64,000 bases of DNA, taken from assembly GCF_053078305.1 (NCBI RefSeq), contig NZ_CP166879.1; one strand, 5' to 3'. A program made the position numbers and the translations under genes. The notes below the pieces were generated by a model. That model had not been told where the DNA came from. It ran no database searches and saw only the letters and a program-made list of their open reading frames with translations. Numbering within the stretch: the stretch's first letter is position 1; each line of letters starts with the position of its first letter. This document shows, piece by piece, positions 17,569 through 48,186 of this stretch.

Positions 17569-20268
17569 ATGCGTAAATATCCTTTAAGTTTACTGAAGGA
17601 TAAAAATATTGTGACTTTCTTTGATTTCTGGGGAAAAACCCGACGCGACGAGAAAGAAGGGGGTGACGACTATCACCTTCTTTGCTGGCATTCGCTGGAT
17701 GTGGCCGCGATGGGCTATTTAATGGTTAAAAGAAATTGCTTCGGGCTGGCTGATTATTTTCGTCAATTAGGGATTTCTGACAAGGAACAGGCGGCTCAAT
17801 TTTTCGCCTGGTTGTTGTGCTGGCACGATATTGGAAAATTTGCCCGCTCATTTCAGCAACTTTACCTGCACCCACAACTCAAGGTTCTGGAAGGCGCAAG
17901 AAAGAATTACGAAAAGATCTCTCATTCAACGCTGGGCTACTGGTTGTGGCATCATTATTTAAGTGAATGCGAAGAATTGCTTCCTGCCTCTTCACTCTCT
18001 ACTCGCAAACTTAAACGTGTAATAGCGATGTGGATGCCCATGACTACCGGGCATCATGGTCGGCCCCCTGACCGTATTGATGAACTGGATAATTTTCTGC
18101 CTGAAGACAAAGCTGCCGCACGAGATTTTCTCCTTGAAATCAAGTCACTGTTTCCGCTCATAGAGATTCCCACATTCTGGGATGATGACGAGGGCGTTGA
18201 ACTTTTAAAACAACTTTCCTGGTATATCTCTGCAACAGTCGTACTCGCAGACTGGACGGGTTCGTCAACGCGATTTTTTCCACGCGTCGCACAGACAATG
18301 AATATTAAAGATTACTGGCAGAAAACTTTAGTTCAGGCTCAAAACGCCTTAACCGTCTTTCCTCCAAAAGCAGAAACCGCACCTTTCACCGGAATTAATA
18401 CGCTGTTTCCTTTTATTGAGCACCCGACACCATTACAGCAAAAGGTACTGGATCTGGATATCAGCCAGCCAGGGCCACAGTTATTTATTCTGGAAGATGT
18501 GACTGGCGCAGGTAAAACAGAAGCGGCGCTTATCCTGGCGCACAGGTTGATGGCTGAGAATAAAGCTCAGGGTTTGTTTTTTGGCCTGCCAACAATGGCA
18601 ACGGCCAATGCCATGTACGATCGGCTGGTCAAAACCTGGCTTGCTTTCTTTTCGCCAGAATCCCGCCCCAGCCTGGTGCTGGCACACAGCGCCCGTACAT
18701 TAATGGAACGCTTTAATGAATCACTCTGGTCCGGTGATTTAGTCGGGTCAGAAGAACCGGATGAACAAGCGTTCAGTCAAGGATGTGCAGCCTGGTTTGC
18801 CGACAGTAACAAGAAGGCTTTACTGGCTGAAATTGGCGTCGGCACGCTGGATCAGGCGATGATGGCAGTGATGCCGTTTAAACATAATAATCTGCGGCTT
18901 CTGGGGTTGAGTAACAAAATCCTGCTGGCTGATGAGATCCACGCCTGTGACGCTTACATGTCGTACATTCTTGAAGGGTTGATTGAGCGACAGGTGCGTG
19001 GCGGAAACAGCGTCATTTTGCTTTCTGCTACGTTATCTCAACAGCAGCGCGACAAACTTGTCGCCGCCTTTGCGCGTGGCACAGAGGGCCAGCAAGAAGC
19101 TCCGTTCCTGGAAAAGGATGATTACCCCTGGCTGACGCATGTCACGAAATCCGATGTGCATTCGCACCGGGTAGCGACGCGCAAAGACGTTGAGCGTAGC
19201 GTGAGCGTGGGTTGGCTTCATAGCGAACAAGAATGTATTGCGCGTATCGAATCAGCGGTAAGTCAGGGGAAATGCATCGCCTGGATCCGGAATTCTGTCG
19301 ATGACGCTATTAAGGTTTATCGTCAGTTACTTGCCCGCGGCGTCATTCCTGCTTCCAGCCTTTCACTTTTTCATAGCCGCTTTGCTTTTAGCGATCGCCA
19401 GCGAATTGAAACGGAAACGCTGGCACGCTTTGGTAAAAATTGTAGTTTAAAAAGATCATCTCAAGTCATTGTTTGTACACAAGTAATTGAGCAAAGTGTG
19501 GATATTGACCTGGACGAAATGATCTCCGACCTGGCCCCCATTGATTTGCTGATCCAGCGAGCGGGGCGATTACAACGGCATATTCGTGATATTAATGGTC
19601 AGTTAAAACGTGATGGAAAAGACGAGCGTTCCCCTCCTGAATTGCTGATTCTGGCCCCCGTCTGGGACGACTCTCCGGGTGACGAATGGTTTGGTAGTGC
19701 GATGCGTAACAGCGCATATGTCTACCCCGATCATGGGCGAATCTGGCTGACGCAGCGAGTATTGCGTGAGCAAGGCGCTATTCAGATGCCACACGCAGCC
19801 CGGCTTCTTATTGAATCCGTCTACGGTGAGGACGTGGTAATGCCGGAAGGATTTGCCCGCAGCGAGCAGGAGCAAGTGGGCAAATATTACTGCGATCGCG
19901 CAATGGCTAAAAAGTTTATGCTGAACTTCAGGCCCGGCTATGCCGCCAATATCAACGATTACCTCCCGGAAAAGCTGTCGACACGTCTGGCTGAAGAGTC
20001 TGTTTCCCTGTGGCTGGCTACCTGTATTGACGGTGTGGTGAAGCCTTATGCCAGCGGTGCTCACGCATGGGAAATGAGCGTTGCCAGAGTGCGTCGAAGC
20101 TGGTGGAAAAAACATCGGGATGAATTTTCTTTACTGGAAGGGGAAGCGTTCAGGCAGTGGTGCATTGAACAACGGCAAGATCCGGAGATGGCAAACGTGA
20201 TTTTAGTCACCGATGACGAAAGCTGCGGGTATTCGGCTACGGAAGGATTGATTGGCAAGGTTGATTGA
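17569..20268 (+). CDS. cas3: Cas3 helicase-nuclease (type I-E)
   Basis: 899-aa ORF; N-terminal HD domain region, DExH helicase motifs (GAGKTEAAL, DEIH). Confidence 0.95.
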   Translation: MRKYPLSLLKDKNIVTFFDFWGKTRRDEKEGGDDYHLLCWHSLDVAAMGYLMVKRNCFGLADYFRQLGISDKEQAAQFFAWLLCWHDIGKFARSFQQLYLHPQLKVLEGARKNYEKISHSTLGYWLWHHYLSECEELLPASSLSTRKLKRVIAMWMPMTTGHHGRPPDRIDELDNFLPEDKAAARDFLLEIKSLFPLIEIPTFWDDDEGVELLKQLSWYISATVVLADWTGSSTRFFPRVAQTMNIKDYWQKTLVQAQNALTVFPPKAETAPFTGINTLFPFIEHPTPLQQKVLDLDISQPGPQLFILEDVTGAGKTEAALILAHRLMAENKAQGLFFGLPTMATANAMYDRLVKTWLAFFSPESRPSLVLAHSARTLMERFNESLWSGDLVGSEEPDEQAFSQGCAAWFADSNKKALLAEIGVGTLDQAMMAVMPFKHNNLRLLGLSNKILLADEIHACDAYMSYILEGLIERQVRGGNSVILLSATLSQQQRDKLVAAFARGTEGQQEAPFLEKDDYPWLTHVTKSDVHSHRVATRKDVERSVSVGWLHSEQECIARIESAVSQGKCIAWIRNSVDDAIKVYRQLLARGVIPASSLSLFHSRFAFSDRQRIETETLARFGKNCSLKRSSQVIVCTQVIEQSVDIDLDEMISDLAPIDLLIQRAGRLQRHIRDINGQLKRDGKDERSPPELLILAPVWDDSPGDEWFGSAMRNSAYVYPDHGRIWLTQRVLREQGAIQMPHAARLLIESVYGEDVVMPEGFARSEQEQVGKYYCDRAMAKKFMLNFRPGYAANINDYLPEKLSTRLAEESVSLWLATCIDGVVKPYASGAHAWEMSVARVRRSWWKKHRDEFSLLEGEAFRQWCIEQRQDPEMANVILVTDDESCGYSATEGLIGKVD

Positions 20269-20297
20269 GATGCCCTGGCGTCGGATGACGCCAGGGC

Positions 20298-20321
20298 TTA
20301 TCCCCGCTGACGCGGGGAACA
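20298..20321 (-). repeat. Solitary CRISPR repeat-like sequence, inverted relative to the arrays
   Basis: TTATCCCCGCTGACGCGGGGAACA matches the reverse complement of the array repeat (TTATCCCCGCTGGCGCGGGGAACA) at 23 of 24 positions; preceded by an 11-bp-stem hairpin at 20272-20297. Confidence 0.7.
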
Positions 20322-20712
20322 GGAACCAATTTTTGTATCTCACTAACTTGGTTAATCCCTAGAATCAGGGAATGGATTTATTTTATCAATGCTATTGTGA
20401 TTATGATAGATGGGTAATTGCTATGAGTTAATGAGAAACAAAAATTTTAAATAATGTCCGGATCCGGAGTTGAGTCACACCGTTACAAGGCGTATTTTCG
20501 TGACCGGTGAAAAGCTGCGGTGAAGAGGACTACGATGTTGTCGATTTTTTTGCTTCAACTTGTGCTAAGTCTGCTTTCAAAACGACAAACTAAGTTCGAT
20601 TTTCGTATCACATTCAACGTCTTTTCTTTTATCCGACTCAGATTAAGTCTCCAACTAAATCTGAAAATATGGTGATGGACAACCGACCAGGGATGGTCTT
20701 TTCTACGAGAGG

Positions 20713-22281
20713 ATGCGTATGAACTCGTTTTCACTTCTGACAACCCCGTGGTTGCCCGTTCGTTTTAAAGACGGAACGACAGGCAAACTGGCGCCAGTCG
20801 ATCTGGCTGATGAAAATGTTGTCGATATCGCTGCGCCACGAGCAGATCTCCAGGGAGCAGCATGGCAGTTTTTACTGGGGCTACTACAAACCAGTTTCGC
20901 GCCCAAAAATCATGGTCGTTGGGATGATATCTGGCAAGACGGACTGGAAGCCGAAAAGCTACGGGAAGCATTGCTGTCTTTAGAACATGCTTTCCAGTTT
21001 GGGCCAGATTCCCCTTCATTTATGCAGGATTTCGAGGCGCTCACGGGAGATAAAGTTCAGGTTGCTTCATTACTGCCTGAGATTCCCGGCGCTCAAACAA
21101 CGAAGTTTAATAAAGACCACTTTATTAAGCGTGGCGTGACTGAACACGTATGCCCTCATTGTTCCGCGTTAGCTCTGTTCTCCCTACAGTTAAATGCACC
21201 GTCAGGCGGCAAAGGCTACCGAACCGGTTTACGCGGCGGTGGGCCGATGACGACTCTGATTGAATTGCAGGAGTATCAGGGCAATCAACAAGCCCCCTTG
21301 TGGCGCAAACTGTGGCTCAACGTGATGCCGCAGGATGAAGCCGACTTACCGCTACCCAAAAAATTTGACGATCTGGTTTTCCCCTGGCTTGGCCCGACGC
21401 GTACCAGCGAACTGGCCGGTGCGGTGGTAACCGATGATCAGGTCAATAAACTCCAGGCGTACTGGGGAATGCCGCGGCGTATTCGTATTGATTTTAATAC
21501 CACGACAGTCGGCAACTGCGATATTTGCGGTGAGCAGGACGACGCGCTTCTGAGCCTGATGACGACCAAAAATTACGGTGCGAATTATGCCATGTGGCAG
21601 CATCCATTAACGCCTTACCGTGTACCACTTAAAGAGGGTGGCGAGTTTTACTCAGTTAAACCACAACCAGGCGGTTTAATTTGGCGCGACTGGTTAGGCC
21701 TTATCGAAACGGGTAAGTCAGAAAACAATACGGAACTTCCCGCTCTGGTGGTGAAACTCTTTAATGCCAGCAGTCTCAAGCAGGCAAAAGTAGGCCTATG
21801 GGGATTTGGCTATGATTTCGACAACATGAAAGCCCGCTGTTGGTACGAACACCGTTTCCCGCTGCTGCTCAATAAAAAAGAAGGCCAGATACCGAAACTG
21901 CGGCTGGCTGCGCAAACGGCTTCACGCATTCTAAGTCTGTTACGGAGTGCATTGAAAGAAGCATGGTTCTCCGATCCAAAAGGTGCACGGGGTGATTTCA
22001 GTTTTGTGGATATCGACTTCTGGAACAAAACTCAGCATCGCTTCCTGAGGTTAGTGCGCCAAATTGAAGAAGGTCAGGATGCGGATGAATTACTCAGCAA
22101 ATGGAATAAGGAGATTTGGTTATTCTCGCGTCAGGATTTTGACGAGCGTGTATTCACCAATCCTTATGAGCCCGTTGATTTAAAACGCGTCATGACCGCG
22201 CGCAAAAAATATTTTACAACATCGGCGGAGAAGCAAAATGCTAAAGCCGCCAGGGAGAAAAAGCAGGAGGCTGCTGAATGA
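20713..22281 (+). CDS. casA: Cascade large subunit Cse1 (CasA)
   Basis: 522-aa ORF; start could be the ATG at 20719; first gene after the AT-rich intergenic region. Confidence 0.9.
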   Translation: MRMNSFSLLTTPWLPVRFKDGTTGKLAPVDLADENVVDIAAPRADLQGAAWQFLLGLLQTSFAPKNHGRWDDIWQDGLEAEKLREALLSLEHAFQFGPDSPSFMQDFEALTGDKVQVASLLPEIPGAQTTKFNKDHFIKRGVTEHVCPHCSALALFSLQLNAPSGGKGYRTGLRGGGPMTTLIELQEYQGNQQAPLWRKLWLNVMPQDEADLPLPKKFDDLVFPWLGPTRTSELAGAVVTDDQVNKLQAYWGMPRRIRIDFNTTTVGNCDICGEQDDALLSLMTTKNYGANYAMWQHPLTPYRVPLKEGGEFYSVKPQPGGLIWRDWLGLIETGKSENNTELPALVVKLFNASSLKQAKVGLWGFGYDFDNMKARCWYEHRFPLLLNKKEGQIPKLRLAAQTASRILSLLRSALKEAWFSDPKGARGDFSFVDIDFWNKTQHRFLRLVRQIEEGQDADELLSKWNKEIWLFSRQDFDERVFTNPYEPVDLKRVMTARKKYFTTSAEKQNAKAAREKKQEAAE

Positions 22282-22814
22282 GTATTGTAAAAGAGGAGCA
22301 CAAAGCCACGCTGCGTAAATGGCACGAAGAGTTGCAGGCTAAACGCGGCAATCGTGCCAGTCTGCGGCGTAGCACAACGGTTAATGATGTTTGCTTGTCA
22401 GAAGGGTTTCGTTCTCTGCTGATGCAGACCCACACTTTGTGGAAAATTGAAGCACAAGAGTGGCGTTTTACCGCACTGGCGCTGGTCGCCGCAGTTAGCG
22501 CCAATGTAAAAGCCATTGATGAACGGCAGCCTTTTGCCGCGCAGCTGGCGGCGGTAATGTCGGAGGGGCGTTTTACTCGCCTGTCGGCAGTAAAAACGCC
22601 GGATGATTTACTGCGTCAGTTACGTCGCGCGGTCAAATTATTAAACGGTTCCGTCAATCTTATCTCTTTGGCAGAAGATATTTTCCGCTGGTGCCAGGAG
22701 AGCGACGACCTGCTCAATCATCACCGCCGCCAGCAGCGGCCAACCGAATTTATCCGTATCCGCTGGGCACTGGAATATTACCAGGCTGGCGACGCCGATA
22801 ACGAACAAAATTAA
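22278..22814 (+). CDS. casB: Cascade small subunit Cse2 (CasB)
   Basis: 178-aa ORF overlapping the casA stop. Confidence 0.9.
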   Translation: MSIVKEEHKATLRKWHEELQAKRGNRASLRRSTTVNDVCLSEGFRSLLMQTHTLWKIEAQEWRFTALALVAAVSANVKAIDERQPFAAQLAAVMSEGRFTRLSAVKTPDDLLRQLRRAVKLLNGSVNLISLAEDIFRWCQESDDLLNHHRRQQRPTEFIRIRWALEYYQAGDADNEQN

Positions 22815-22828
22815 TAAAGGACTATCTC

Positions 22829-23884
22829 ATGACAACATTTATTCAGCTTCATTTGTTAACCGCTTACCCTGCTGCCAACCTTAACCGTGATGATACTGGT
22901 GCGCCAAAAACTGTGGTACTGGGTGGTGCAACGCGTCTGCGCGTTTCCTCACAAAGTCTGAAACGTGCGTGGCGCACTTCTGCACTTTTTGAACAGGCAC
23001 TGGCGGGCCATATTGGTATTCGCAGTGGGCGAATTGCGCGTGAGGCGGCAACTATCCTGATTGAGAAAGGAATCGAAGAGAAAAAAGCCATCGAATGGGC
23101 GGCAAAAATTGCGGATTATCTTGGGAAAGCTAAAAACGACAAAAAACCAAAAGATCCGCTCACTAACGCCGAAACTGAACAATTAGTTCATATCAGCCCG
23201 GCAGAATTTGACGCCGTAAAAGCGCTGGCCCATCAACTGGCAGAAGAAAAGCGCGCGCCAAAAGAGGAAGATCTCGCGTTGTTACGTAAAGACCGTATAG
23301 CGGTAGATATCGCTATGTTTGGTCGTATGCTGGCGAATAAACCTGAGTTTAATGTTGAAGCCGCCTGCCAGGTCGCGCATGCGTTTGGTGTCAGTGAAAC
23401 GATTGTCGAAGATGATTTTTTCACCGCCGTTGATGATTTGCGCCAGGCCTCTGAAGATGCCGGTGCCGGGCATCTCGGAGAAACCGGATTCGGTTCAGCA
23501 CTTTTCTACACCTATATCTGCATTGATAAAGATCTGCTGGTAGAAAACCTCGGCGGTGACGAAGCGTTAGCTAATCAGACCATACGCGCTTTTACGGAAG
23601 CCGCGCTTAAAGTTTCCCCAACCGGTAAACAAAATAGCTTTGCCAGCCGTGCCTACGCCTCCTGGGCGCTGGCGGAAAAAGGCACTGATCAACCGCGTTC
23701 TCTGGCGGCGGCTTTCTATGAACCCATTAATGGTACCCGTCAGTTAGATGTGGCGGTGCAGCGTATTACAACGCTTCGCGAAAACATGAATACGGTCTAC
23801 GAACAGAAGACTGAATGCGCAAGTTTTGACGTGATGAACAAACAGGGAAGCATGAAGGACGTACTGGACTTTATCTGCGCGTAA
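22829..23884 (+). CDS. casC: Cascade backbone Cas7e (CasC)
   Basis: 351-aa ORF; N-terminal MTTFIQLHLLTAYPAANLNRDDTGAPK. Confidence 0.9.
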   Translation: MTTFIQLHLLTAYPAANLNRDDTGAPKTVVLGGATRLRVSSQSLKRAWRTSALFEQALAGHIGIRSGRIAREAATILIEKGIEEKKAIEWAAKIADYLGKAKNDKKPKDPLTNAETEQLVHISPAEFDAVKALAHQLAEEKRAPKEEDLALLRKDRIAVDIAMFGRMLANKPEFNVEAACQVAHAFGVSETIVEDDFFTAVDDLRQASEDAGAGHLGETGFGSALFYTYICIDKDLLVENLGGDEALANQTIRAFTEAALKVSPTGKQNSFASRAYASWALAEKGTDQPRSLAAAFYEPINGTRQLDVAVQRITTLRENMNTVYEQKTECASFDVMNKQGSMKDVLDFICA

Positions 23885-23894
23885 GGGGCGGCTT

Positions 23895-24641
23895 ATGAGC
23901 CAATATCTGATTTTTCAGCTTCATGGGCCAATGGCATCCTGGGGCGTCGATGCCCCCGGCGAAGTGCGTCATACCCATGAACTGCCTTCGCGCTCAGCAT
24001 TGCTGGGTCTGCTGGCTGCCGGGGTAGGGATTCGGCGTGATGATACCGAACGCTTAAACGCGTTTAATCGCCACTATTCACTGGTGGTTTGCGCCAGCCG
24101 TAACCCGCGCTGGGCACGGGATTATCACACGATCCAGATGCCAAAAGAGGTGCGCAAAGCGCGTTATTTCAGCCGTCGCGAAGAGTTGAGCGACTCTGAT
24201 CTTCTGAGCGCGATTATCTCCCGGCGCGACTACTACACCGACGCCTGGTGGATGGTGGCGGTGGCAACAACAGCCGATGCGCCTTACAGCCTCGAACAGT
24301 TGCAGGGCGGTTTACGCCATCCAGTTTTTCCTCTTTATCTGGGGCGAAAAAGTCATCCGCTGGCATTACCACTTGCGCCGTTACTGCTCGAAGGCAACGC
24401 GTCTGATGTTTTACGTAACGCATACCAACAGTATCAGGATCATTTCCACGACCTGAAAGTCTCACTCCCGAAACTTCAGGATGAATGCTGGTGGGAAGGG
24501 GAGCACGACGGCCTGGTCGTGAGCAAAATATTACGCCGCCGGGATGTTCCTTTAAATCGCCAGCAGTGGCTGTTTGGGGAACGCACCGTCAATCAGGGGC
24601 CGTGGCTCAGCAAGGAGGAACCATGTACCTCTCAAGAATAA
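23895..24641 (+). CDS. casD: Cascade Cas5e (CasD)
   Basis: 248-aa ORF at the expected position in the operon. Confidence 0.9.
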   Translation: MSQYLIFQLHGPMASWGVDAPGEVRHTHELPSRSALLGLLAAGVGIRRDDTERLNAFNRHYSLVVCASRNPRWARDYHTIQMPKEVRKARYFSRREELSDSDLLSAIISRRDYYTDAWWMVAVATTADAPYSLEQLQGGLRHPVFPLYLGRKSHPLALPLAPLLLEGNASDVLRNAYQQYQDHFHDLKVSLPKLQDECWWEGEHDGLVVSKILRRRDVPLNRQQWLFGERTVNQGPWLSKEEPCTSQE

Positions 24642-25269
24642 CCTTACATACCGCTCAGCTTTTGCCTGCGCAGTTGCTGCATCTGGTGGATCGCGGTGAA
24701 TATGTGATGCATCAGTGGCTGTGGGATCTCTTCCCTGGCGGCAAAGAAAGGCAATTTCTTTATCGTCGGGAGGAACTTCAGGGTGCGTTTCGCTTTTTTG
24801 TCCTCTCGCAGGAACGCCCGGCGGAAAGTGAAACTTTCACTATCGAATGCCGGTCATTTGCTCCGGAGCTGCGTACCGGACAATCCCTTTGTTTCAACCT
24901 GCGGGCGAATCCCACAATTTGTAAAGCGGGCAAGCGCCACGATCTGCTGATGGAGGCGAAACGGCAGGTGAGGGGACAGGCGGAAGGGCGTGATGTCTGG
25001 TTGCATCAACAACAGGCGGCGCTGGACTGGCTGGCAGCGCAGGGGGAGAGAAGCGGTTTTACACTGCTGGATACCTCGGTTGATGCCTACCGACAACAGC
25101 AACTGCGGCGGGAAAACTCCCGGCAACTGATCCAGTTCAGTAGCGTGGATTATACGGGGATGCTTACGGTCACCGATCCCGGGTTATTTCTGCAACGTCT
25201 CAGTCAGGGGTATGGCAAAAGCCGCGCGTTCGGCTGTGGTCTGATGCTGATCAAACCCGGAGCAGAGGT

Positions 25270-25273
<4 letters not shown>
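24623..25273 (+). CDS. casE: Cas6e (CasE) pre-crRNA endoribonuclease
   Basis: 216 aa from ATG 24623 (MYLSRITLHTAQLL...); the track ORF starts upstream at 24485; overlaps casD end. Confidence 0.9.
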
Positions 25274-26483
<1,210 letters not shown>

Positions 26484-26580
26484 GTTATGTGTTCTTTAAA
26501 AATAAGGAAATGTTTGAATTTAGTTGGTAGATTGTTGATGTGGAATAAATTTGTTTAAAAACAGATATGTATGCTTAGTG
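26484..26580 (+). promoter_or_regulatory. CRISPR leader (AT-rich) between cas2 and the first repeat
   Basis: 97-bp AT-rich stretch ending ...AACAGATATGTATGCTTAGT directly before the first repeat. Confidence 0.8.
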
Positions 26581-27579
26581 TGTTCCCCGCGCCAGCGGGG
26601 ATAAACCGGGGGGGCAATAATATGTGCGGCGGATCACCAGGTGTTCCCCGCGCCAGCGGGGATAAACCGTCGGAAAAATGGCTGGCCTCAACGGTGAAAA
26701 CGTGTTCCCCGCGCCAGCGGGGATAAACCGCCAGGGTGAAACTTTTCGCTGACGTAAATAAAGTGTTCCCCGCGCCAGCGGGGATAAACCGACAATCACA
26801 TATACGACGCGAGACGGAGATCGGTGTTCCCCGCGCCAGCGGGGATAAACCGTGATGGGCGAATACAAGCGCTGGCGCAACGAGGTGTTCCCCGCGCCAG
26901 CGGGGATAAACCCGGCATTCTTAACCGGCGCAACAAGGGGGGCGCGTGTTCCCCGCGCCAGCGGGGATAAACCGGTTAACTCCAGGTGGCGCGGCAGTGT
27001 TCAGAAGTGTTCCCCGCGCCAGCGGGGATAAACCGTGCTCTCATTTGTGTCGGCATCACTCGCGTCGGTGTTCCCCGCGCCAGCGGGGATAAACCGTCTG
27101 CCGCGAGCTGGTCTACGCCTACGCCATGGTGTTCCCCGCGCCAGCGGGGATAAACCGACATATGCCACAACCAGGCGAAGAAAAGTGTTCCCCGCGCCAG
27201 CGGGGATAAACCGCCCGTCACCGACGCGCAGTGGCGCTACCGTGAGTGTTCCCCGCGCCAGCGGGGATAAACCGGTCGCTGGGTTATTTTGTGTTGTGGG
27301 GCGATCGTGTTCCCCGCGCCAGCGGGGATAAACCGCTCATATTCGGATTGATCGTGTGTTTCGGTTTGTGTTCCCCGCGCCAGCGGGGATAAACCTGCGT
27401 ATATCTGTTGATGCGCACGGCGTGGCGGGTGTTCCCCGCGCCAGCGGGGATAAACCGAATGATTTAATACCAGACGCAGAGTGCCACACGTGTTCCCCGC
27501 GCCAGCGGGGATAAACCGGGCGCACTGGATGCGATGATGGATATCACTTAGAATTCCCCGCCCCTGCGGTAGAACACCC
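26581..27579 (+). CRISPR. cas-proximal CRISPR array (type I-E): 16 intact repeats plus 1 degenerate terminal repeat, 16 spacers
   Basis: Repeat GTGTTCCCCGCGCCAGCGGGGATAAACCG starting at 26581, 26642, 26702, 26763, 26824, 26885, 26946, 27007, 27068, 27129, 27185, 27246, 27307, 27368, 27429, 27490; degenerate GAATTCCCCGCCCCTGCGGTAGAACACCC at 27551-27579. Confidence 0.97.
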
Positions 27580-38779: not shown

Positions 38780-39187
38780 CTATGTGCTCATCATCTTGCG
38801 CACCAGCTGCACAAACAGCTCCTGCTCTTCTGCACTCAAACGCCCCAAAAATTCCTCATCCACGCTGTCACCAATCGGTATCGCCGCAGCAAGTACCTTT
38901 TCTCCTTCGGCAGTCAGCCAGACAAAGCGTCGCCGCTTGTCAGCGGCGTCATGTTCACGTCTGACTAAGCCACGATTCTCCATTCTTGCCAACATTTCTG
39001 CCAACGTTGCTTTGGTGCTGACTGCTGCTTCTATCAGTGCCACCTGTTCGATACCAGGCTTATCAGCAATGGCGCGCATCACCGCATACTGTGGTTTGGT
39101 CAGGTCAGGTAACTCGTGCTGCCAGCGAGCCGTGTGCTGCTGAAAAAGCTGTCGTAACTGATGGAACGCTTTATTTCGTAACGCCAT
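38780..39187 (-). CDS. MarR/SlyA-family transcriptional regulator
   Basis: 135-aa ORF with winged-helix MarR character; divergent from the decarboxylase genes. Confidence 0.8.
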   Translation of the reverse strand: MALRNKAFHQLRQLFQQHTARWQHELPDLTKPQYAVMRAIADKPGIEQVALIEAAVSTKATLAEMLARMENRGLVRREHDAADKRRRFVWLTAEGEKVLAAAIPIGDSVDEEFLGRLSAEEQELFVQLVRKMMST

Positions 39188-39333
39188 GTAAACTCCGGGC
39201 TAATTCTCTGTCGCTATCATAGCGGTTTTTTAGTGACGAAGAAGATGTTGTTACTTTTCAATCCTTGCCGCTGTGGAAATGAAGGAGTATGTTAATAATA
39301 ACGTTCGTATACGAACAATTAAGAGAGTAAGCA

Positions 39334-39927
39334 ATGAAACTGATCGTCGGGATGACAGGGGCTACCGGTGCGCCTCTTGGTGTGGCATTACTGCAAGCGC
39401 TGCGGGAGATGCCGAATGTCGAGACTCATCTGGTGATGTCGAAGTGGGCGAAAACCACCATTGAACTGGAAACGCCTTACAGCGCCCGCGATGTTGCTGC
39501 CCTCGCAGACTTCAGCCATAACCCGGCGGATCAGGCGGCGACCATCTCCTCAGGTTCCTTTCGTACCGACGGCATGATCGTTATTCCGTGCAGTATGAAA
39601 ACGCTCGCCGGTATCCGTGCCGGTTACGCCGATGGCCTGGTAGGGCGCGGGGCGGACGTCGTGCTCAAAGAAGGCCGCAAACTGGTGCTGGTACCGCGTG
39701 AAATGCCGCTTAGCACCATCCATCTCGAAAATATGCTCGCACTTTCACGCATGGGCGTGGCGATGTTGCCGCCGATGCCTGCCTTTTATAACCATCCCGA
39801 AACGGTAGATGACATTGTCCACCATGTGGTAGCCCGCGTGCTGGATCAATTTGGCCTCGAACATCCCCACGCCAGGCGCTGGCAAGGATTGCCGCAGGCC
39901 CGGAATTTTTCTCAGGAGAATGAATAA
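39334..39927 (+). CDS. ecdB: UbiX/Pad1-family flavin prenyltransferase (decarboxylase B subunit)
   Basis: 197-aa ORF; MKLIVGMTGATGAPLGVALLQAL flavoprotein N-terminus. Confidence 0.85.
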   Translation: MKLIVGMTGATGAPLGVALLQALREMPNVETHLVMSKWAKTTIELETPYSARDVAALADFSHNPADQAATISSGSFRTDGMIVIPCSMKTLAGIRAGYADGLVGRGADVVLKEGRKLVLVPREMPLSTIHLENMLALSRMGVAMLPPMPAFYNHPETVDDIVHHVVARVLDQFGLEHPHARRWQGLPQARNFSQENE

Positions 39928-41354
39928 TGGCATTTGATGATTTACGCAGCTTTTTACAGGCGCTTGATGACCACGGCCAGTTACTGAAAATCAGCGAAGA
40001 GGTGAACGCGGAACCGGATCTGGCTGCCGCTGCCAACGCCACCGGGCGTATCGGCGATGGTGCACCGGCGCTGTGGTTTGATAATATTCGCGGTTTTACC
40101 GATGCCCGCGTGGCGATGAATACCATCGGTTCCTGGCAGAACCACGCGATTTCCTTGGGCCTGCCGCCAAACACCCCGGTTAAAAAACAGATTGATGAGT
40201 TTATCCGCCGCTGGGATAACTTCCCGATTGCCCCGGAGCGCCGCGCCAATCCAGCCTGGGCGCAGAACACCGTCGATGGTGACGAGATTAATCTGTTCGA
40301 TATCCTGCCGCTGTTTCGTTTAAACGACGGTGATGGCGGTTTCTATCTCGACAAAGCGTGCGTGGTTTCCCGCGATCCGCTCGACCCGGATAACTTCGGC
40401 AAGCAGAACGTCGGCATCTACCGCATGGAAGTGAAGGGCAAGCGTAAGCTCGGCCTGCAACCGGTGCCGATGCACGATATCGCCCTGCATCTGCATAAAG
40501 CAGAAGAGCGCGGTGAAGATCTACCGATTGCGATCACGCTCGGTAACGATCCGATCATCACGCTGATGGGCGCAACGCCACTGAAATACGATCAATCTGA
40601 GTACGAAATGGCAGGCGCGCTGCGTGAAAGCTCGTACCCGATCGCCACCGCCCCGCTGACCGGTTTTGATGTGCCGTGGGGTTCAGAAGTGATCCTCGAA
40701 GGGGTCATCGAAAGCCGTAAACGCGAAATCGAGGGGCCGTTCGGTGAGTTTACCGGACACTACTCCGGCGGGCGTAACATGACCGTGGTGCGCATCGATA
40801 AAGTCTCTTACCGCACCAGGCCGATTTTCGAATCGCTGTACCTCGGCATGCCGTGGACCGAAATCGACTACCTGATGGGGCCAGCCACCTGTGTGCCGCT
40901 GTATCAGCAACTGAAAGCCGAGTTCCCGGAAGTGCAGGCGGTAAACGCCATGTACACCCACGGCCTGCTGGCGATTATCTCCACCAAAAAACGCTACGGC
41001 GGCTTTGCCCGCGCGGTGGGCCTGCGTGCGATGACCACGCCGCACGGTCTGGGCTACGTAAAGATGGTGATTATGGTCGATGAAGACGTTGACCCGTTCA
41101 ACCTGCCGCAGGTGATGTGGGCGCTCTCCTCGAAAGTAAATCCGGCAGGGGATTTGGTGCAGTTGCCGAATATGTCCGTGCTGGAACTCGACCCAGGCTC
41201 AAGCCCGGCGGGGATCACCGACAAGCTGATTATCGACGCCACCACGCCTGTCGCCCCGGACAACCGTGGTCACTACAGCCAGCCGGTGGTGGATTTGCCG
41301 GAAACCAAAGCCTGGGCTGAAAAACTGACCGCTATGCTGGCCGCACGTAAATAA
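39927..41354 (+). CDS. ecdC: UbiD-family hydroxyaromatic acid decarboxylase (C subunit, YclC-like)
   Basis: 475-aa ORF with UbiD-family character; start overlaps the upstream stop. Confidence 0.85.
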   Translation: MAFDDLRSFLQALDDHGQLLKISEEVNAEPDLAAAANATGRIGDGAPALWFDNIRGFTDARVAMNTIGSWQNHAISLGLPPNTPVKKQIDEFIRRWDNFPIAPERRANPAWAQNTVDGDEINLFDILPLFRLNDGDGGFYLDKACVVSRDPLDPDNFGKQNVGIYRMEVKGKRKLGLQPVPMHDIALHLHKAEERGEDLPIAITLGNDPIITLMGATPLKYDQSEYEMAGALRESSYPIATAPLTGFDVPWGSEVILEGVIESRKREIEGPFGEFTGHYSGGRNMTVVRIDKVSYRTRPIFESLYLGMPWTEIDYLMGPATCVPLYQQLKAEFPEVQAVNAMYTHGLLAIISTKKRYGGFARAVGLRAMTTPHGLGYVKMVIMVDEDVDPFNLPQVMWALSSKVNPAGDLVQLPNMSVLELDPGSSPAGITDKLIIDATTPVAPDNRGHYSQPVVDLPETKAWAEKLTAMLAARK

Positions 41355-41364
41355 GGAGAACAAG

Positions 41365-41601
41365 ATGATTTGTCCACGTTGTGCCGATGAACAGATTGAA
41401 GTGATGGCGAAATCGCCGGTGAAAGATGTCTGGACGGTATATCAGTGCCAGCATTGCCTTTATACCTGGCGCGATACCGAACCGCTGCGCCGTACCAGCC
41501 GCGAACATTATCCCGAAGCGTTCCGCATGACGCAGAAAGATATTGATGACGCGCCAATGGTGCCGAGCATCCCGCCGCTGCTGGCGGAAGGTAAGCGCTA
41601 A
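41365..41601 (+). CDS. ecdD: Small Cys-rich decarboxylase D subunit (YclD-like)
   Basis: 78-aa ORF with CPRC...CQHC zinc-ribbon-like motif; follows the UbiD gene. Confidence 0.75.
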   Translation: MICPRCADEQIEVMAKSPVKDVWTVYQCQHCLYTWRDTEPLRRTSREHYPEAFRMTQKDIDDAPMVPSIPPLLAEGKR

Positions 41602-42403: not shown

Positions 42404-44965
42404 TTACACCAGACTCTTCAAGCGATAAATCCACTCCAGCGCCTGACGCGGGGTGAGTGAATCCGGATCGAGGTTTTCCAGTGCCTCGACAGCAGGCGAG
42501 GTTTCTTCCGGTACGGACAGCAAAGACATTTGCGTACCATCCACTTGTGTAGCGGCGGCGTTCGGCGAAATGCTCTCCAGCTCACGCAGTTTCTGCCGCG
42601 CGCGTTTGATCACCTCTTTTGGCACGCCCGCAAGGGCTGCAACCGCCAGGCCGTAGCTTTTGCTCGCCGCGCCATCCTGCACGCTATGCATAAAGGCAAT
42701 GGTGTCGCCGTGCTCCAGTGCATCGAGATGCACGTTGGCGACGCCTTCCATTTTCTCCGGTAACTGGGTCAGCTCGAAATAGTGGGTAGCAAACAGCGTC
42801 AACGCTTTAATCTTATTCGCCAGATTTTCCGCGCACGCCCACGCCAGCGACAGACCATCGTAAGTGGAAGTTCCGCGCCCAATCTCATCCATCAGCACCA
42901 GACTGTACTCGGTGGCGTTATGCAGAATATTAGCGGTTTCGGTCATCTCCACCATAAAGGTTGAACGCCCGGAAGCCAGATCATCCGCTGCCCCTACGCG
43001 GGTAAAGATACGGTCAATCGGGCCAATCTCGACTTTTTGTGCCGGTACATAGCTGCCGATGTAGGCCATCAACGCAATCAGTGCGGTCTGGCGCATATAG
43101 GTACTTTTACCGCCCATGTTCGGGCCGGTAATAATCAACATCCGGCGCTGCGGTGACAGATTCAGCGGGTTGGCGATAAATGGCTCGTTCAGCACCTGTT
43201 CAACCACCGGATGGCGGCCTTCGGTAATGCGAATGCCCGGTTTATCAATAAAGGTCGGGCAGGTGTAGTTCAGGGTATAGGCCCGTTCCGCCAGGTTCAC
43301 CAGCACGTCGAGTTCCGCCAGCGCGCTCGCGCTCTGTTGCAACGCTTCCAGATGCGGCAACAGCAGGTCGAACAACTCTTCATAAAGCTGTTTTTCCAGT
43401 GCCAGTGCTTTGCCTTTTGAGGTGAGAACTTTATCTTCGTACTCTTTTAGCTCTGGAATGATGTAGCGCTCGGCGTTTTTCAGCGTCTGGCGACGCATGT
43501 AGTTGATGGGTGCCAGATGGCTTTGCCCACGGCTGATTTGAATGTAGTAGCCGTGCACCGCATTAAAGCCAACTTTCAGCGTGTCCAGGCCGGTACGTTC
43601 ACGCTCGCGGACTTCCAGACGCTCCAGATAATCGGTCGCGCCGTCAGCCAGCGCGCGCCACTCATCCAGCTCTTCGTTATAGCCCGATGCGATAACACCA
43701 CCGTCGCGTACCAGCACCGGCGGTGTGTCGATGATTGCTCGCTCCAGCAGATCGCGCAGCTCGGCAAACTCGCCCATCTTCTCACGTAGCGCCTGTACCG
43801 GTGCACTATCGACAGTTTCTAACTGCGCACGCAGCTCCGGCAGTTGCTGGAAAGCGTGGCGCATACGGGCCAGATCGCGTGGGCGAGCAGTTCGTAAAGC
43901 CAGACGTGCCAGAATACGTTCCAGGTCGCCGACCTGACGCAGTACCGGCTGTAGCCCGGCGGTGAAATCCTGCAATGCGCCAATAGTTTGCTGGCGCTCA
44001 AGCAACACGCGGGTATCGCGCACTGGCATATGCAGCCAGCGTTTCAGCATACGGCTGCCCATCGGCGTGACGGTGCAGTCGAGCACAGAAGCCAGCGTAT
44101 TTTCCGCACCACCCGCCAGGTTCTGGGTGATTTCCAGATTACGACGCGTCGCGGCATCCATAATGATGCTGTCCTGCTCACGTTCCATGGTGATGGAACG
44201 AATATGCGGCAGAGTCGTACGTTGGGTATCTTTCGCATACTGCAACAGACAACCGGCAGCACAAAGTCCGCGCGGCGCGTTCTCGACGCCAAAACCGACC
44301 AGATCGCGGGTCCCAAATTGCAGATTCAACTGCTGGCGCGCGGTGTCGATTTCAAACTCCCACAGCGGGCGACGGCGCAGGCCGCGACGGCCTTCAATTA
44401 ACGACATTTCAGCAAAATCTTCTGCATACAGCAGTTCCGCAGGATTAGTGCGTTGCAGTTCTGCCGCCATCGTTTCCCGGTCAGCCGGTTCGCTCAGGCG
44501 AAAACGCCCGGAACTGATATCCAGCGTCGCGTAGCCGAAACCTTTGCTGTCCTGCCAGATAGCCGCCAGCAGGTTGTCCTGACGCTCCTGCAACAGGGCT
44601 TCATCGCTGATGGTGCCTGGCGTAACGATACGCACAACTTTGCGCTCAACCGGACCTTTGCTGGTCGCCGGATCGCCAATTTGTTCGCAGATGGCAACGG
44701 ACTCACCCTGATTCACCAGTTTGGCGAGGTAGTTTTCCACCGCATGGTAGGGAATCCCCGCCATCGGGATCGGCTCTCCCGCCGAAGCACCGCGTTTGGT
44801 CAGTGAAATATCCAGCAGTTGCGACGCGCGTTTTGCGTCGTCATAAAACAGTTCATAAAAATCACCCATCCGGTAAAACAGCAGGATCTCGGGATGCTGG
44901 GCTTTCAGCTTGAGATACTGCTGCATCATGGGCGTATGGGCGTCGAAATTTTCTATTGCACTCAT
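42404..44965 (-). CDS. mutS: DNA mismatch repair protein MutS
   Basis: 853-aa ORF; Walker [10 protein letters not shown]; full length. Confidence 0.97.
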
Positions 44966-45211
44966 GGGGTTATGTCCGGTTCCCTGATATTAAATGGGGT
45001 GTGATGGTTTTTATTTTCGTTGTAATCACATAAGGCGCACATGATACCGGAGTTAATCATTTCAGGGGAAGAAGCGAACGGCGAGTTCTTGATGCTGGTT
45101 CCGGGAAAGATGCTGTTTTGCAGCTTTTGCGTGATGCTTATGAAGCAAGTACGCAAAATTGCGTCGGTTGAATAAACCACCTCCTTCAGAGCCATAGTCC
45201 CCTTTCAAATT

Positions 45212-45234
45212 AAGTTGTAGTATAAATACACCTT
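45212..45234 (+). promoter_or_regulatory. Candidate operator/-10 region upstream of ygbA (possible NsrR site)
   Basis: Partial palindrome AAGTTGTAGTATAAATACACCTT overlapping a TATAAAT -10-like hexamer about 25 bp before the start codon; ygbA is known to be NsrR-regulated in K-12. Confidence 0.3.
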
Positions 45235-45251
45235 AAGAGTATGGAGGCAGC

Positions 45252-45596
45252 ATGTCCGGCAAGCGTATCTCTCGTGAAAAACTGACGATTAAAAAAATGA
45301 TCGATCTTTATCAAGCGAAATGCCCGCAGGCGTCAGCGGAGCCGGAGCATTACGACGCGCTGTTTGCCTACGCGCAAAAGCGGCTGGATAAATGTGTGTT
45401 CGGCGAAGAGAAACCAGCCTGTAAGCAGTGTCCGGTGCACTGTTACCAGCCTGCAAAGCGTGAAGAGATGAAACAGATTATGCGTTGGGCCGGGCCGAGA
45501 ATGCTGTGGCGTCATCCGATCTTAACCGTGCGTCATCTCATCGATGACAAGCGTCCGGTGCCGGAGTTGCCAGAAAAATATCGTCCAAAGAAATAA
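45252..45596 (+). CDS. ygbA: Cys-rich small protein YgbA
   Basis: 114-aa ORF; position between mutS and fhlA. Confidence 0.8.
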   Translation: MSGKRISREKLTIKKMIDLYQAKCPQASAEPEHYDALFAYAQKRLDKCVFGEEKPACKQCPVHCYQPAKREEMKQIMRWAGPRMLWRHPILTVRHLIDDKRPVPELPEKYRPKK

Positions 45597-45634
45597 ATCT
45601 GCCGGAGAGCCATACTCTCCGGCAAATAAGGCGT

Positions 45635-46063
45635 TTACGCTTTGGTGGCAATCAGGATGGCTGATGCTTTGATCAATGCAATAACGCGTGAGCCAGTGGT
45701 GAGTTTCATTTCATCCTGACTTTCATTTGTTACCACTGCCACAATTTCAAAACCCGCATCCGTTTTGATATGGACAGTGGCGTTCACTGCGCCTTCGGTG
45801 ATTGTCGACACGCTGCCAGCAAACTGGTTGCGAGCAGAGAATTTCAGTCCACAGTCTTCCGTGGCCAGCGTTACCCACGGGGCTTTAATCAGGGCAATCG
45901 CTTCTTTCCCTTTTGCCAGCCCCAGAGCCTGTTGGCTGCTGTGTGTAACAATCGCCACCAGTTTTGCACCACCTGCCAGCGTCAGTTCTACTTCGTCATT
46001 CACCGCGCCCATTGCTACTGCGCTAACTGTTCCGGTTAATTGATTTCTTGCTGAAACTGCCAT
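45635..46063 (-). CDS. Tandem Mop/TOBE-domain molybdate-binding protein (molbindin-like)
   Basis: 142 aa from the ATG at 46063, preceded by AAGGAGG; two repeats of about 70 aa each (...LTGTVSAV...VELTLAGGAKLVAIVT... / ...FAGSVSTI...VHIKTDAGFEIVAVVT...). Lies 44 bp downstream of the fhlA stop, same strand. Confidence 0.75.
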   Translation of the reverse strand: MAVSARNQLTGTVSAVAMGAVNDEVELTLAGGAKLVAIVTHSSQQALGLAKGKEAIALIKAPWVTLATEDCGLKFSARNQFAGSVSTITEGAVNATVHIKTDAGFEIVAVVTNESQDEMKLTTGSRVIALIKASAILIATKA

Positions 46064-46107
46064 ACTGCCTCCTTTCATTGAATGTTGATCGAGTATAACC
46101 ACATCTG

Positions 46108-48186
46108 TTAAATCAATGCCGATTTATCAATTCCCAGTCGCTTCATCCGTGACAGCAGGGTCGTGCGTTTCAGCCCCAGACGTTGCGCAGCGCCTTTAGG
46201 CCCGGCAACCACGCCGTTAGTTTCTTTCAGCACGCGAACAATCAACTGATATTCATCTTCGCCCTCCTGAGCGACAACCGTTGCGGCAGGCGGCGTTTCA
46301 GGTTCCGGTAAAGCAATATCTGGCAATGACAGCTGCAGCACGTTGCCGCGTGTTAGCAATACTGCGCGCTCAATGACGTTTTCCAGTTCGCGTACGTTAC
46401 CCGGCCACTCCATGTTGCTCAAGGTGCGCAGCGTCTCGGCAGGAATGCTGTCGATATTGCGCCCCAGACGACGGGCAATTTTGAAGGTAAAGGCTTTCGC
46501 CAGCAGCGGAATATCTTCCGGACGCTCGCGTAGTGGCGGAAGGTGAATCGGAAATACGTTCAGGCGGTAATAGAGATCGCTACGGAACTCTCGGTCGGCG
46601 ACCATTTTTTTCAGATCGCGGTTAGTCGCGGCGATTAGACGCACGTCCGTCTGAATGATTTTGTTGCTGCCGAGGCGTTCAAACTCCTGTTCCTGCAATA
46701 CACGCAGCAACTTCGGCTGTAACTCCAGTGGCATATCGCCCACTTCGTCGAGGAACAGGGAGCTTTTATCCGCCAGTTCAAAACGACCGATACGCTGGGC
46801 GCTGGCACCGGTAAAAGCCCCACGCTCATGACCAAACAGATCGCTCTCCAGCAATCCGGCAGGCATCGCCGCGCAGTTCATTTTGACCATGCGGCGATTA
46901 TTACGCCCACTGAGATTATGGATAGCACGGGCAATCAGCTCTTTACCCGTGCCAGTTTCACCGAGGATCAGCACGGTACTGTCACTTTGCGCCACCATTT
47001 CAACTTGTTTAAGCACGCTGTACATGGCTTCGCTGCGGCCAATAATCTCGCCAAATTCACTATCAACATTGTTGAGCTGCTCGGTCAGGGCGAGGTTTTC
47101 ATCAACCAGCCGTTCTTTCAGACGATGGATTTCCTGATAGGCGAGGGCGTTATCGACAGCGATTGCCACACGTTCGGCAATCTGGCGCAGTAAATTCAGA
47201 TTGGTAGTGGTAAACACTTTCTCTTCACATTGCGCCAGTTTCAGCACGCCCAGCATGGTGTCGCCAGACATCAGCGGTAACAGGCACAAGGTTTGAATCT
47301 GGTTGCCCCAGGTATCGAACAACATGCGTTCATAGGGGGCTAAATCATCCCGCTCGTGGAGATTAATCAGCAGCATCTCTTTACTTTTGAACACGCGTTC
47401 GGTGAGGGTTCCGGCTTCATCGACTTCGCTCTGTTCGTGGGCGGGATGCTGTTTATCAAGATAGTGAGTGGAGTAGATGTTGAGTTTGTTTTTACGGTGG
47501 CTGCGTAAGACAATGCTGATATCGTCAATGTCGAAATAGTAATGGATTTCTTTGGCGACTTCGCTGACCAGTTCGTCCATATCCAGGCGGGAAAGCACCG
47601 CGTTGGTGATGGCGACCAGGATGCGGAAGTTATCGCGTTCCCGGCATAACAACTCATAGTCGACATTGTTAACGACGCGACTCTGGATTTGTTCGGTGAC
47701 GACAGAAACGATTTGCGTAAATGTTTGCAGACGATTGAACTCTTTTTCGCTCCAGGGGCGATCGTCATAACGAATAAATTCACAGCCACCAAAAATATGC
47801 CCTTCCGCCGCCAGTGGCATCAGGCAATAGTGACCAAATTTTGGGTATAGCCCACCTGCGGCCAGCTGCGGCCAGGTTTCACAAAATTCTTCGTAACTGC
47901 AATGCAGCGTATCAGGGCGCGACAAAATGCTGCGTACCGGACCGTGTGCCAGAACAGTTTCGTCTTCATATTTAATGGGGGTGTCTTTTTCACGCGATGC
48001 GTAATAAGACGCACGTTGAGTCTGCGCTTGCCACAACACAATAGCCGCGTTGTCGGCGAGCGCAGAACGCTTTACCAGTTGCGAAAGAGCCTCACACAGC
48101 GAGGCCAGATCGGGCTGCTGCAATAGTGTCCGAGTGATGTCGAACAACCCTTGCTGTCCGAGATCACTCATCGGTGTATATGACAT
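46108..48186 (-). CDS. fhlA: Formate hydrogenlyase transcriptional activator (sigma-54 enhancer-binding protein)
   Basis: 692 aa from MSYTPMSDLGQQG...; AAA+ sigma-54 activation domain (GETGTGKE, GAFTGA) and C-terminal HTH. Confidence 0.95.
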   Translation of the reverse strand: MSYTPMSDLGQQGLFDITRTLLQQPDLASLCEALSQLVKRSALADNAAIVLWQAQTQRASYYASREKDTPIKYEDETVLAHGPVRSILSRPDTLHCSYEEFCETWPQLAAGGLYPKFGHYCLMPLAAEGHIFGGCEFIRYDDRPWSEKEFNRLQTFTQIVSVVTEQIQSRVVNNVDYELLCRERDNFRILVAITNAVLSRLDMDELVSEVAKEIHYYFDIDDISIVLRSHRKNKLNIYSTHYLDKQHPAHEQSEVDEAGTLTERVFKSKEMLLINLHERDDLAPYERMLFDTWGNQIQTLCLLPLMSGDTMLGVLKLAQCEEKVFTTTNLNLLRQIAERVAIAVDNALAYQEIHRLKERLVDENLALTEQLNNVDSEFGEIIGRSEAMYSVLKQVEMVAQSDSTVLILGETGTGKELIARAIHNLSGRNNRRMVKMNCAAMPAGLLESDLFGHERGAFTGASAQRIGRFELADKSSLFLDEVGDMPLELQPKLLRVLQEQEFERLGSNKIIQTDVRLIAATNRDLKKMVADREFRSDLYYRLNVFPIHLPPLRERPEDIPLLAKAFTFKIARRLGRNIDSIPAETLRTLSNMEWPGNVRELENVIERAVLLTRGNVLQLSLPDIALPEPETPPAATVVAQEGEDEYQLIVRVLKETNGVVAGPKGAAQRLGLKRTTLLSRMKRLGIDKSALI

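Follow-up and report, generated by a model that had tools for sequence, protein, structure and literature searches.

The fhlA–ygbA interval of the window, by which we mean the whole 64,000-nucleotide stretch of DNA analysed here, carries a gene for a small tandem-domain protein, referred to below as mop, on the same strand as fhlA and directly downstream of it. The features of the locus are:

45252..45596, plus strand: ygbA, 114 aa, convergent with mop; its last codons are unlike those of the K-12 allele (117 aa)
45597..45627, both strands: bidirectional intrinsic terminator hairpin serving mop and ygbA and, probably, fhlA
45626..46107, no strand assigned: 482-nt segment replaced by 7 nt (TTTGCAG) in K-12-type E. 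coli, from junction comparison
45635..46063, minus strand: mop, a ModG-type di-Mop (tandem TOBE) gene of 142 aa plus stop codon, from translation, profiles and structure
46064..46107, minus strand: fhlA–mop spacer, 44 nt, without terminator and without stable structure
46068..46073, minus strand: Shine–Dalgarno sequence AGGAGG, 4 nt 5′ of the ATG at 46063
46108..48186, minus strand: fhlA, formate hydrogenlyase (FHL) transcriptional activator, 692 aa, an open reading frame adjoining mop upstream

The open reading frame drawn mechanically at the mop locus spans 45635–46102 on the minus strand and opens with GTG (155 codons). This start at 46102, which would give a product of 155 aa, was rejected because the orthologues all begin with MxVSARNQ after a conserved GGAGG. 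Upstream of this motif and start, an alignment of 13 genera reveals spacer sequence without conservation, and the GGAG(G) core of the ribosome-binding site is invariant in the same genera. Translation from the ATG at 46063 yields a product of 142 aa that begins MAVSARNQLTG and ends LIATKA, and in the closest, near-identical genome (E. coli LH50-c) RefSeq calls mop with equal coordinates as a ‘TOBE domain-containing protein’. The first-pass annotation had described a 142-aa reading frame with tandem Mop/TOBE repeats and a strong Shine–Dalgarno site, lying 44 bp after fhlA on the same strand and convergent with ygbA, and all of this stood on closer analysis.

The stop codon of fhlA occupies 46108–46110, and the FhlA of the window is 100% identical to the annotated FhlA of one E. 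coli record (L001) by tblastn. In all E. coli records inspected (L001–L004 and L085), RefSeq/PGAP labels fhlA as ‘flhA’ with the product name ‘FlhA’; flhA is the symbol of a flagellar export gene, and the correct symbol for the FHL activator is fhlA. The mutS–ygbA interval holds a 44-aa open reading frame (45041–45175) that RefSeq lists as a hypothetical protein (WP_000611926/WP_000611932) and of which a longer variant occurs in some strains. Elsewhere in the window, a complete type I-E CRISPR-Cas system (cas3, casA–E, cas1 and cas2) extends over 17569–27520, with an array of 61-bp period at about 26580–27520; from offsets in ORF coordinates, the cas3–casA spacer and the array length apparently differ from those of LH50-c, in which a small Hok/Gef-family ORF is annotated just upstream of cas3.

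Two Mop/TOBE domains in tandem make up the whole of the mop product. Pfam PF03459 (TOBE) matches it at residues 4–66 (E = 1.6e-17) and again at residues 76–137 (E = 6.2e-16), the NCBIfam model TIGR00638 (‘Mop’) scores 142 bits over two stretches (cut-off 55), and 30 of 72 positions are identical between the two halves. These E-values and this score, together with the dN/dS ratios given below, place the domain matches far beyond chance. The best match among solved structures is Azotobacter vinelandii ModG (1H9J, E = 5e-33, residues 1–140 aligned with 4–143), followed by the di-Mop domain of E. coli ModE (E about 1e-15) and then by single-domain Mop/Tub proteins. An AlphaFold2 model built from an alignment of 15 orthologues has a mean pLDDT of 90.9 and superposes on 1H9J in Foldseek with a TM-score of 0.95 and an rmsd of 1.4 Å over 142 columns (48% identity). 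The tandem-Mop, molbindin-like identity suggested in the first-pass annotation is therefore borne out by the profile search, by the 1H9J match and by the superposition of folds.

Two further identities for a protein with TOBE domains were considered. ModE was rejected since the mop product has only 142 aa and no N-terminal helix-turn-helix, the ModE profile NF007957 being matched only at positions 124–261 of its 263 (88 bits, against a cut-off of 369). A TOBE-bearing ModC/ABC-transporter subunit was likewise rejected since no ABC ATPase domain lies ahead of the TOBE domains; the ModC and WtpC profiles were matched only over their last ~65 positions, far under their cut-offs. With two Mop/TOBE domains and neither a helix-turn-helix nor an ABC ATPase, the mop product is thus a ModG-type molbindin, and neither ModE nor ModC. 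The molbindin/ModG family is structurally well characterised.

Both repeats carry the residues expected of an oxyanion site. In Tub, the type 1 site is provided by the backbone of Ala20-Val21-Asn22 and the type 2 site by Ser4, Arg6, Ser40, Lys60 and Ala61, and these residues have been described as similar in ModG, Mop and ModE (PMC11980592). In register with the Tub ligands, the first repeat of the mop product has S4, R6, A20-V21-N22, T40, K60 and A61, and the second has S76, R78, A92-V93-N94, T112, K132 and A133. The motifs S-A-R-N, A-V-N, T-x-x-S and K-A occur in both repeats, and across the alignment of 15 orthologues the predicted ligand positions of both are invariant or at least 90% conserved.

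Comparison of mop with its orthologues in E. coli LH50-c, CFT073, E. albertii, Citrobacter, Klebsiella, Kluyvera, Yokenella, Lelliottia and Kosakonia gave dN/dS ratios of 0.03–0.09 (Nei–Gojobori; dS is saturated across genera). Such ratios show that mop is a real gene under strong purifying selection. Between the window and CFT073 there are 14 synonymous and no non-synonymous differences in mop, and the corresponding dS of 0.14 is seemingly high within E. coli.

When one genome per species was scanned, 42 species proved to have a mop orthologue with 80% identity or more; they belong to Escherichia, Citrobacter, Pseudocitrobacter, Klebsiella, Raoultella, Kluyvera, Pluralibacter, Yokenella, Lelliottia, Enterobacter, Kosakonia and Phytobacter. 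Of the 42, 36 have fhlA directly upstream of mop on the same strand, and the usual order is hypE-fhlA-mop-(ygbA). The retention of the hypE-fhlA-mop order across genera indicates that mop is ancestral at the fhlA–ygbA site in Enterobacteriaceae. Three species have hypE followed by mop without fhlA: in Phytobacter diazotrophicus (L038), P. ursingii (L043) and Kosakonia sp. S29 (L078), hypE, mop and ygbA follow one another directly at about 3850–5430. Since no fhlA lies between hypE and mop in these genomes, fhlA appears to have been lost or moved while mop stayed.

More distant orthologues (at most 73% identity; Serratia, Hafnia, Cedecea, Edwardsiella, Mangrovibacter and others) have neither fhlA nor hypE within 5 kb. 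In Serratia, Hafnia, Cedecea and Edwardsiella, the genes around mop encode unrelated transporters and dehydrogenases and so are uninformative as a clue to function, and the weakest matches, in Caballeronia, apparently form the C-terminal portion of a longer ORF, which at 274 aa is the size of ModE. The Salmonella enterica orthologue, 89% identical, lies away from fhlA (L087, 5001–5429; L088, 4025–4453), in surroundings that include an IstB/IS21 remnant, a CaiF/GrlA-like regulator and a fimbrial usher, and also near an MsrPQ-like pair (Oxidored_molyb and Ni_hydr_CYTB); this suggests that the Salmonella copy was relocated horizontally and now sits inside an accessory island. The link with fhlA is confined to Enterobacteriaceae, and both the distant orthologues and the Salmonella copy lie elsewhere, so the adjacency of fhlA and mop could reflect inherited gene order instead of functional coupling.

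Within E. coli, mop is present in about a third of the complete RefSeq genomes (1892 of 5426), always as one chromosomal copy at a single site, and is full length in 1889 of the 1892. The exact protein sequence encoded in the window is found on at least 1000 public contigs, and carriers include CFT073 with its gene C_RS15650, the type strain ATCC 11775, F11 and BEN2908. PGAP names the product ‘TOBE domain-containing protein’ or, occasionally, ‘molybdopterin-binding protein’. Of the alternatives raised in the first-pass annotation, that the gene may be strain-specific or that it may have been overlooked, the former is supported by this distribution and the latter is not, as PGAP annotates mop routinely. 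IAI39, E. albertii and E. fergusonii have been reported to carry the gene under the name ‘modE’ (PMC7232297), which is a misnomer because the product has no helix-turn-helix.

Derivatives of K-12 are without mop, and O157:H7 is identical to K-12 at the locus (PMC7232297). The impression that no gene is annotated here in K-12 was confirmed by comparison of the K-12 fhlA–ygbA interval, where the replacement of the 482-nt segment removes the mop coding sequence and its ribosome-binding site and keeps the downstream hairpin. All K-12-type genomes sampled show the same 635-bp span, consistent with a single deletion allele. Given that 7 nt stand in the place of 482 nt and that the gene order is conserved across genera, the K-12-type state is a clean deletion of an ancestral mop. 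A recent insertion or mobile element was rejected on the grounds that the gene occurs as a single chromosomal copy at one site with junctions devoid of repeats, and that its location is shared by E. albertii, Citrobacter, Klebsiella and other genera.

The fhlA–mutS interval is a described hotspot at which genes are gained and lost (PMC7232297). Haplotypes with and without mop differ in the 3′ end of ygbA (114 against 117 codons) and in the terminator stem (window 45560–45630 compared with L002 3361–3442), and these differences, together with the dS of 0.14 in mop, would be consistent with old, recombining haplotypes in this hotspot. In E. coli FDAARGOS_1285 (L004, 2288–3126), IS1A truncates mop and nlpD-pcm-surE is brought alongside, an arrangement which implies an IS1-mediated deletion or rearrangement that took ygbA, mutS and rpoS from the side of mop. 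Between rpoS and mutS (window 38780–41601) a MarR-family regulator and subunits B, C and D of a hydroxyarylic acid decarboxylase lie beside pphB, and CFT073 has ygbI at the corresponding position; this is the known polymorphic mutS–rpoS region.

The sole terminator-like element near mop is the hairpin at 45597–45627, located between the convergent mop and ygbA genes and directly 3′ of the mop stop codon. It comprises 14 pairs followed by a T-rich tail in the terminator scan. Its predicted folding energy is −25.2 kcal/mol when read from the minus (mop) strand, with a z-score of −6.4, and −20.7 kcal/mol when read from the plus (ygbA) strand, with a z-score of −5.1. In K-12 the corresponding hairpin is found directly 3′ of the fhlA stop codon, with a compensatory C:G to G:C change in the stem. 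No terminator was detected by the scan of the 44-nt fhlA–mop spacer, nor was any stable structure found there (z = +0.35 relative to shuffled sequences), and a scan of the spacer and the 3′ end of fhlA for consensus sigma-70 promoters gave none. As the spacer holds no terminator and the terminator 3′ of mop matches that of K-12 fhlA, it is likely from this anatomy that mop is co-transcribed with fhlA as the last cistron. Part of the transcription of fhlA itself starts at the hyp promoters, which depend on formate/FhlA and on FNR, and reads through.

About 25 nt 5′ of the mop ATG there is a TATACT sequence, common to Escherichia and Citrobacter and partly to Pluralibacter; with no usable −35 element and no TGn extension, it is a weak candidate for a promoter of mop's own. 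The fhlA–mop spacer is longer (77–95 nt) in Lelliottia (L035) and Enterobacter soli (L036), at about 4905–5000. That of Lelliottia contains a GC-rich, terminator-like hairpin with a T tail as well as TGnTATAAA, and that of E. soli has an extended −10-like element of the TGnTATAAA type, which suggests an independent mop promoter in these two, and the last-cistron reading may not be valid in every genus. No ModE-box-like TATAT-N7-TAYAT site occurs within 15 kb of mop. The window holds four matches to this pattern when one mismatch is allowed, a number at the level of chance, and a ModE operator at mop was rejected because all four are away from the gene. A Moco riboswitch or other RNA element was rejected as well, given that Rfam gave no match over 44900–46500 at E ≤ 1.

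We propose, with a probability of about 0.75, that mop encodes a ModG-type molbindin which, as the product of the last gene of the hyp–fhlA unit, acts as a cytoplasmic molybdate buffer for cofactor supply to FDH-H. In the proposed mechanism, mop would be transcribed at the end of this unit under fermentative, formate-induced conditions, and a trimer of its product would, by analogy with ModG, bind molybdate (and tungstate) at interface sites formed by the motifs of both repeats. The protein would hold a cytoplasmic pool of molybdate, buffering molybdenum-cofactor synthesis for the Mo/Se enzyme FDH-H, and may indirectly alter the occupancy of ModE. A buffer or store is favoured because a protein made from the fhlA transcript would raise the molybdate-binding capacity just when a molybdenum enzyme is being built. 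FDH-H, which is required by FHL, is a molybdenum enzyme, and fdhF and hyc are fully expressed only when molybdate and ModE are available besides FhlA and formate (PMC3149613). The connection of mop with molybdate-dependent FHL expression is one that we infer from synteny within Enterobacteriaceae. Against a tight coupling are the restriction of the fhlA–mop adjacency to one family, the presence of mop without fhlA in Phytobacter and the separate location of the Salmonella gene. Moreover, mop is dispensable for FHL, since FHL operates without it in about 65% of E. coli genomes, among them K-12.

The position of mop directly after a regulator gene in 36 of 42 Enterobacteriaceae species, the fold and 34–36% identity that its product has in common with the di-Mop sensor domain of ModE, and the description of ModG as a ‘molybdate homeostasis regulator’ (PMC11980592) could also be taken to mean that the mop product is mainly a regulator, which sequesters molybdate or contacts ModE or FhlA and thereby sets how much molybdate is needed before ModE activates hyc, fdhF, moa and nap and represses modABC. 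We consider this unlikely, as the protein has no DNA-binding domain (the ModE profile covers it only from position 124 to 261 of 263, at 88 as opposed to 369 bits), there is no sign of contact with FhlA or ModE, and Phytobacter retains mop beside hypE without fhlA. A related and somewhat more doubtful proposal is that the mop product is a strain-variable component of the FHL regulon that couples molybdate availability to FHL/FDH-H output, for example through a shifted ModE-molybdate threshold or through the channelling of molybdenum to cofactor synthesis. Were it correct, carriers such as the extraintestinal pathogens CFT073, F11, BEN2908 and IAI39 would handle molybdenum in another way than K-12 and O157, in which the gene was lost.

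It is very improbable that the protein prefers tungstate, as a ‘TudG’ that keeps tungstate off molybdoenzymes or stores tungsten. Its second repeat is 40% identical to Tub, and Mop/TOBE proteins bind both oxyanions, single-domain Tub storing tungstate, while proteins of ModG-type architecture are frequent among gut species with predicted tungsten use (PMC11980592); the closest solved relative, however, is the molybdate protein ModG (48% identity), and the neighbours of mop serve a molybdenum enzyme system. No tungstoenzyme and no TupABC transporter is known from E. coli, which also counts against a tungstate function. Least credible is the view that mop is a decaying or functionless accessory remnant. 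Its absence from about 65% of complete E. coli genomes, the one allele truncated by IS1 and the location in a documented hotspot of gain and loss (PMC7232297) would be expected of a remnant, but a dN/dS of 0.03–0.09 across genera (where dS is saturated), the full length of 1889 of 1892 E. coli copies and the conservation of the ribosome-binding site and ligand residues would not.

The gene is annotated in public databases, and its fhlA–ygbA position has been published, though misnamed. The literature searched yielded no experimental study of the enterobacterial mop product, the sole mention found being the passing ‘modE’ remark (PMC7232297), and a 2020 review of molybdoenzymes in pathogens mentions neither Mop, ModG nor molbindins. 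Knowledge of molybdate homeostasis and FHL regulation comes mostly from K-12, which is without mop, and about a third of sequenced E. coli, extraintestinal pathogens among them, as well as many other Enterobacteriaceae, possess an extra predicted cytoplasmic molybdate-binding protein. If the molybdate buffer proposed here does alter the handling of molybdenum, ModE thresholds, FDH-H maturation and H2 production established in K-12 may not transfer to carriers. More modest gains are the correction of the ‘modE’ label and the recognition of the K-12 state as the deletion of an ancestral gene.

Of the known systems, A. vinelandii ModG (1H9J/1H9K/1H9M) is the closest to the mop product. Both proteins have the same length and two Mop/TOBE domains only, they align over their full length (48% identity, E = 5e-33, TM-score 0.95), and the SARN, AVN, T-x-x-S and KA motifs are found in both repeats of each. 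The genomic settings differ: the ModG gene lies with mod genes, whereas mop follows fhlA in the hyp–fhlA cluster; mop has no nearby ModE-box-like site, unlike A. vinelandii modG with its ModE/mod association; and the hosts of mop, unlike A. vinelandii, are mostly not nitrogen fixers. The C-terminal di-Mop of E. coli ModE (1O7L, 1H9R/1H9S) is more distant (34–36% identity, TM-score 0.87–0.89), with the tandem Mop fold and the type 2 ligand motifs in common; ModE has an N-terminal helix-turn-helix, and the mop product, being without one, cannot be a DNA-binding regulator. In MopII of Clostridium pasteurianum (1GUG), Mop of Sporomusa ovata (1FR3) and Tub of Eubacterium limosum (9BEB) the Mop domain corresponds to each single repeat, and the second repeat of the mop product is 40% identical to E. 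limosum Tub with the ligand positions in register. These single-domain proteins, of about 70 aa, form hexamers, whereas the mop product is a covalent tandem. A. vinelandii ModG is a trimer that binds eight molybdates and is equivalent to a hexamer of single-domain Mop, and by analogy the mop product should also form a trimer equivalent to that hexamer.
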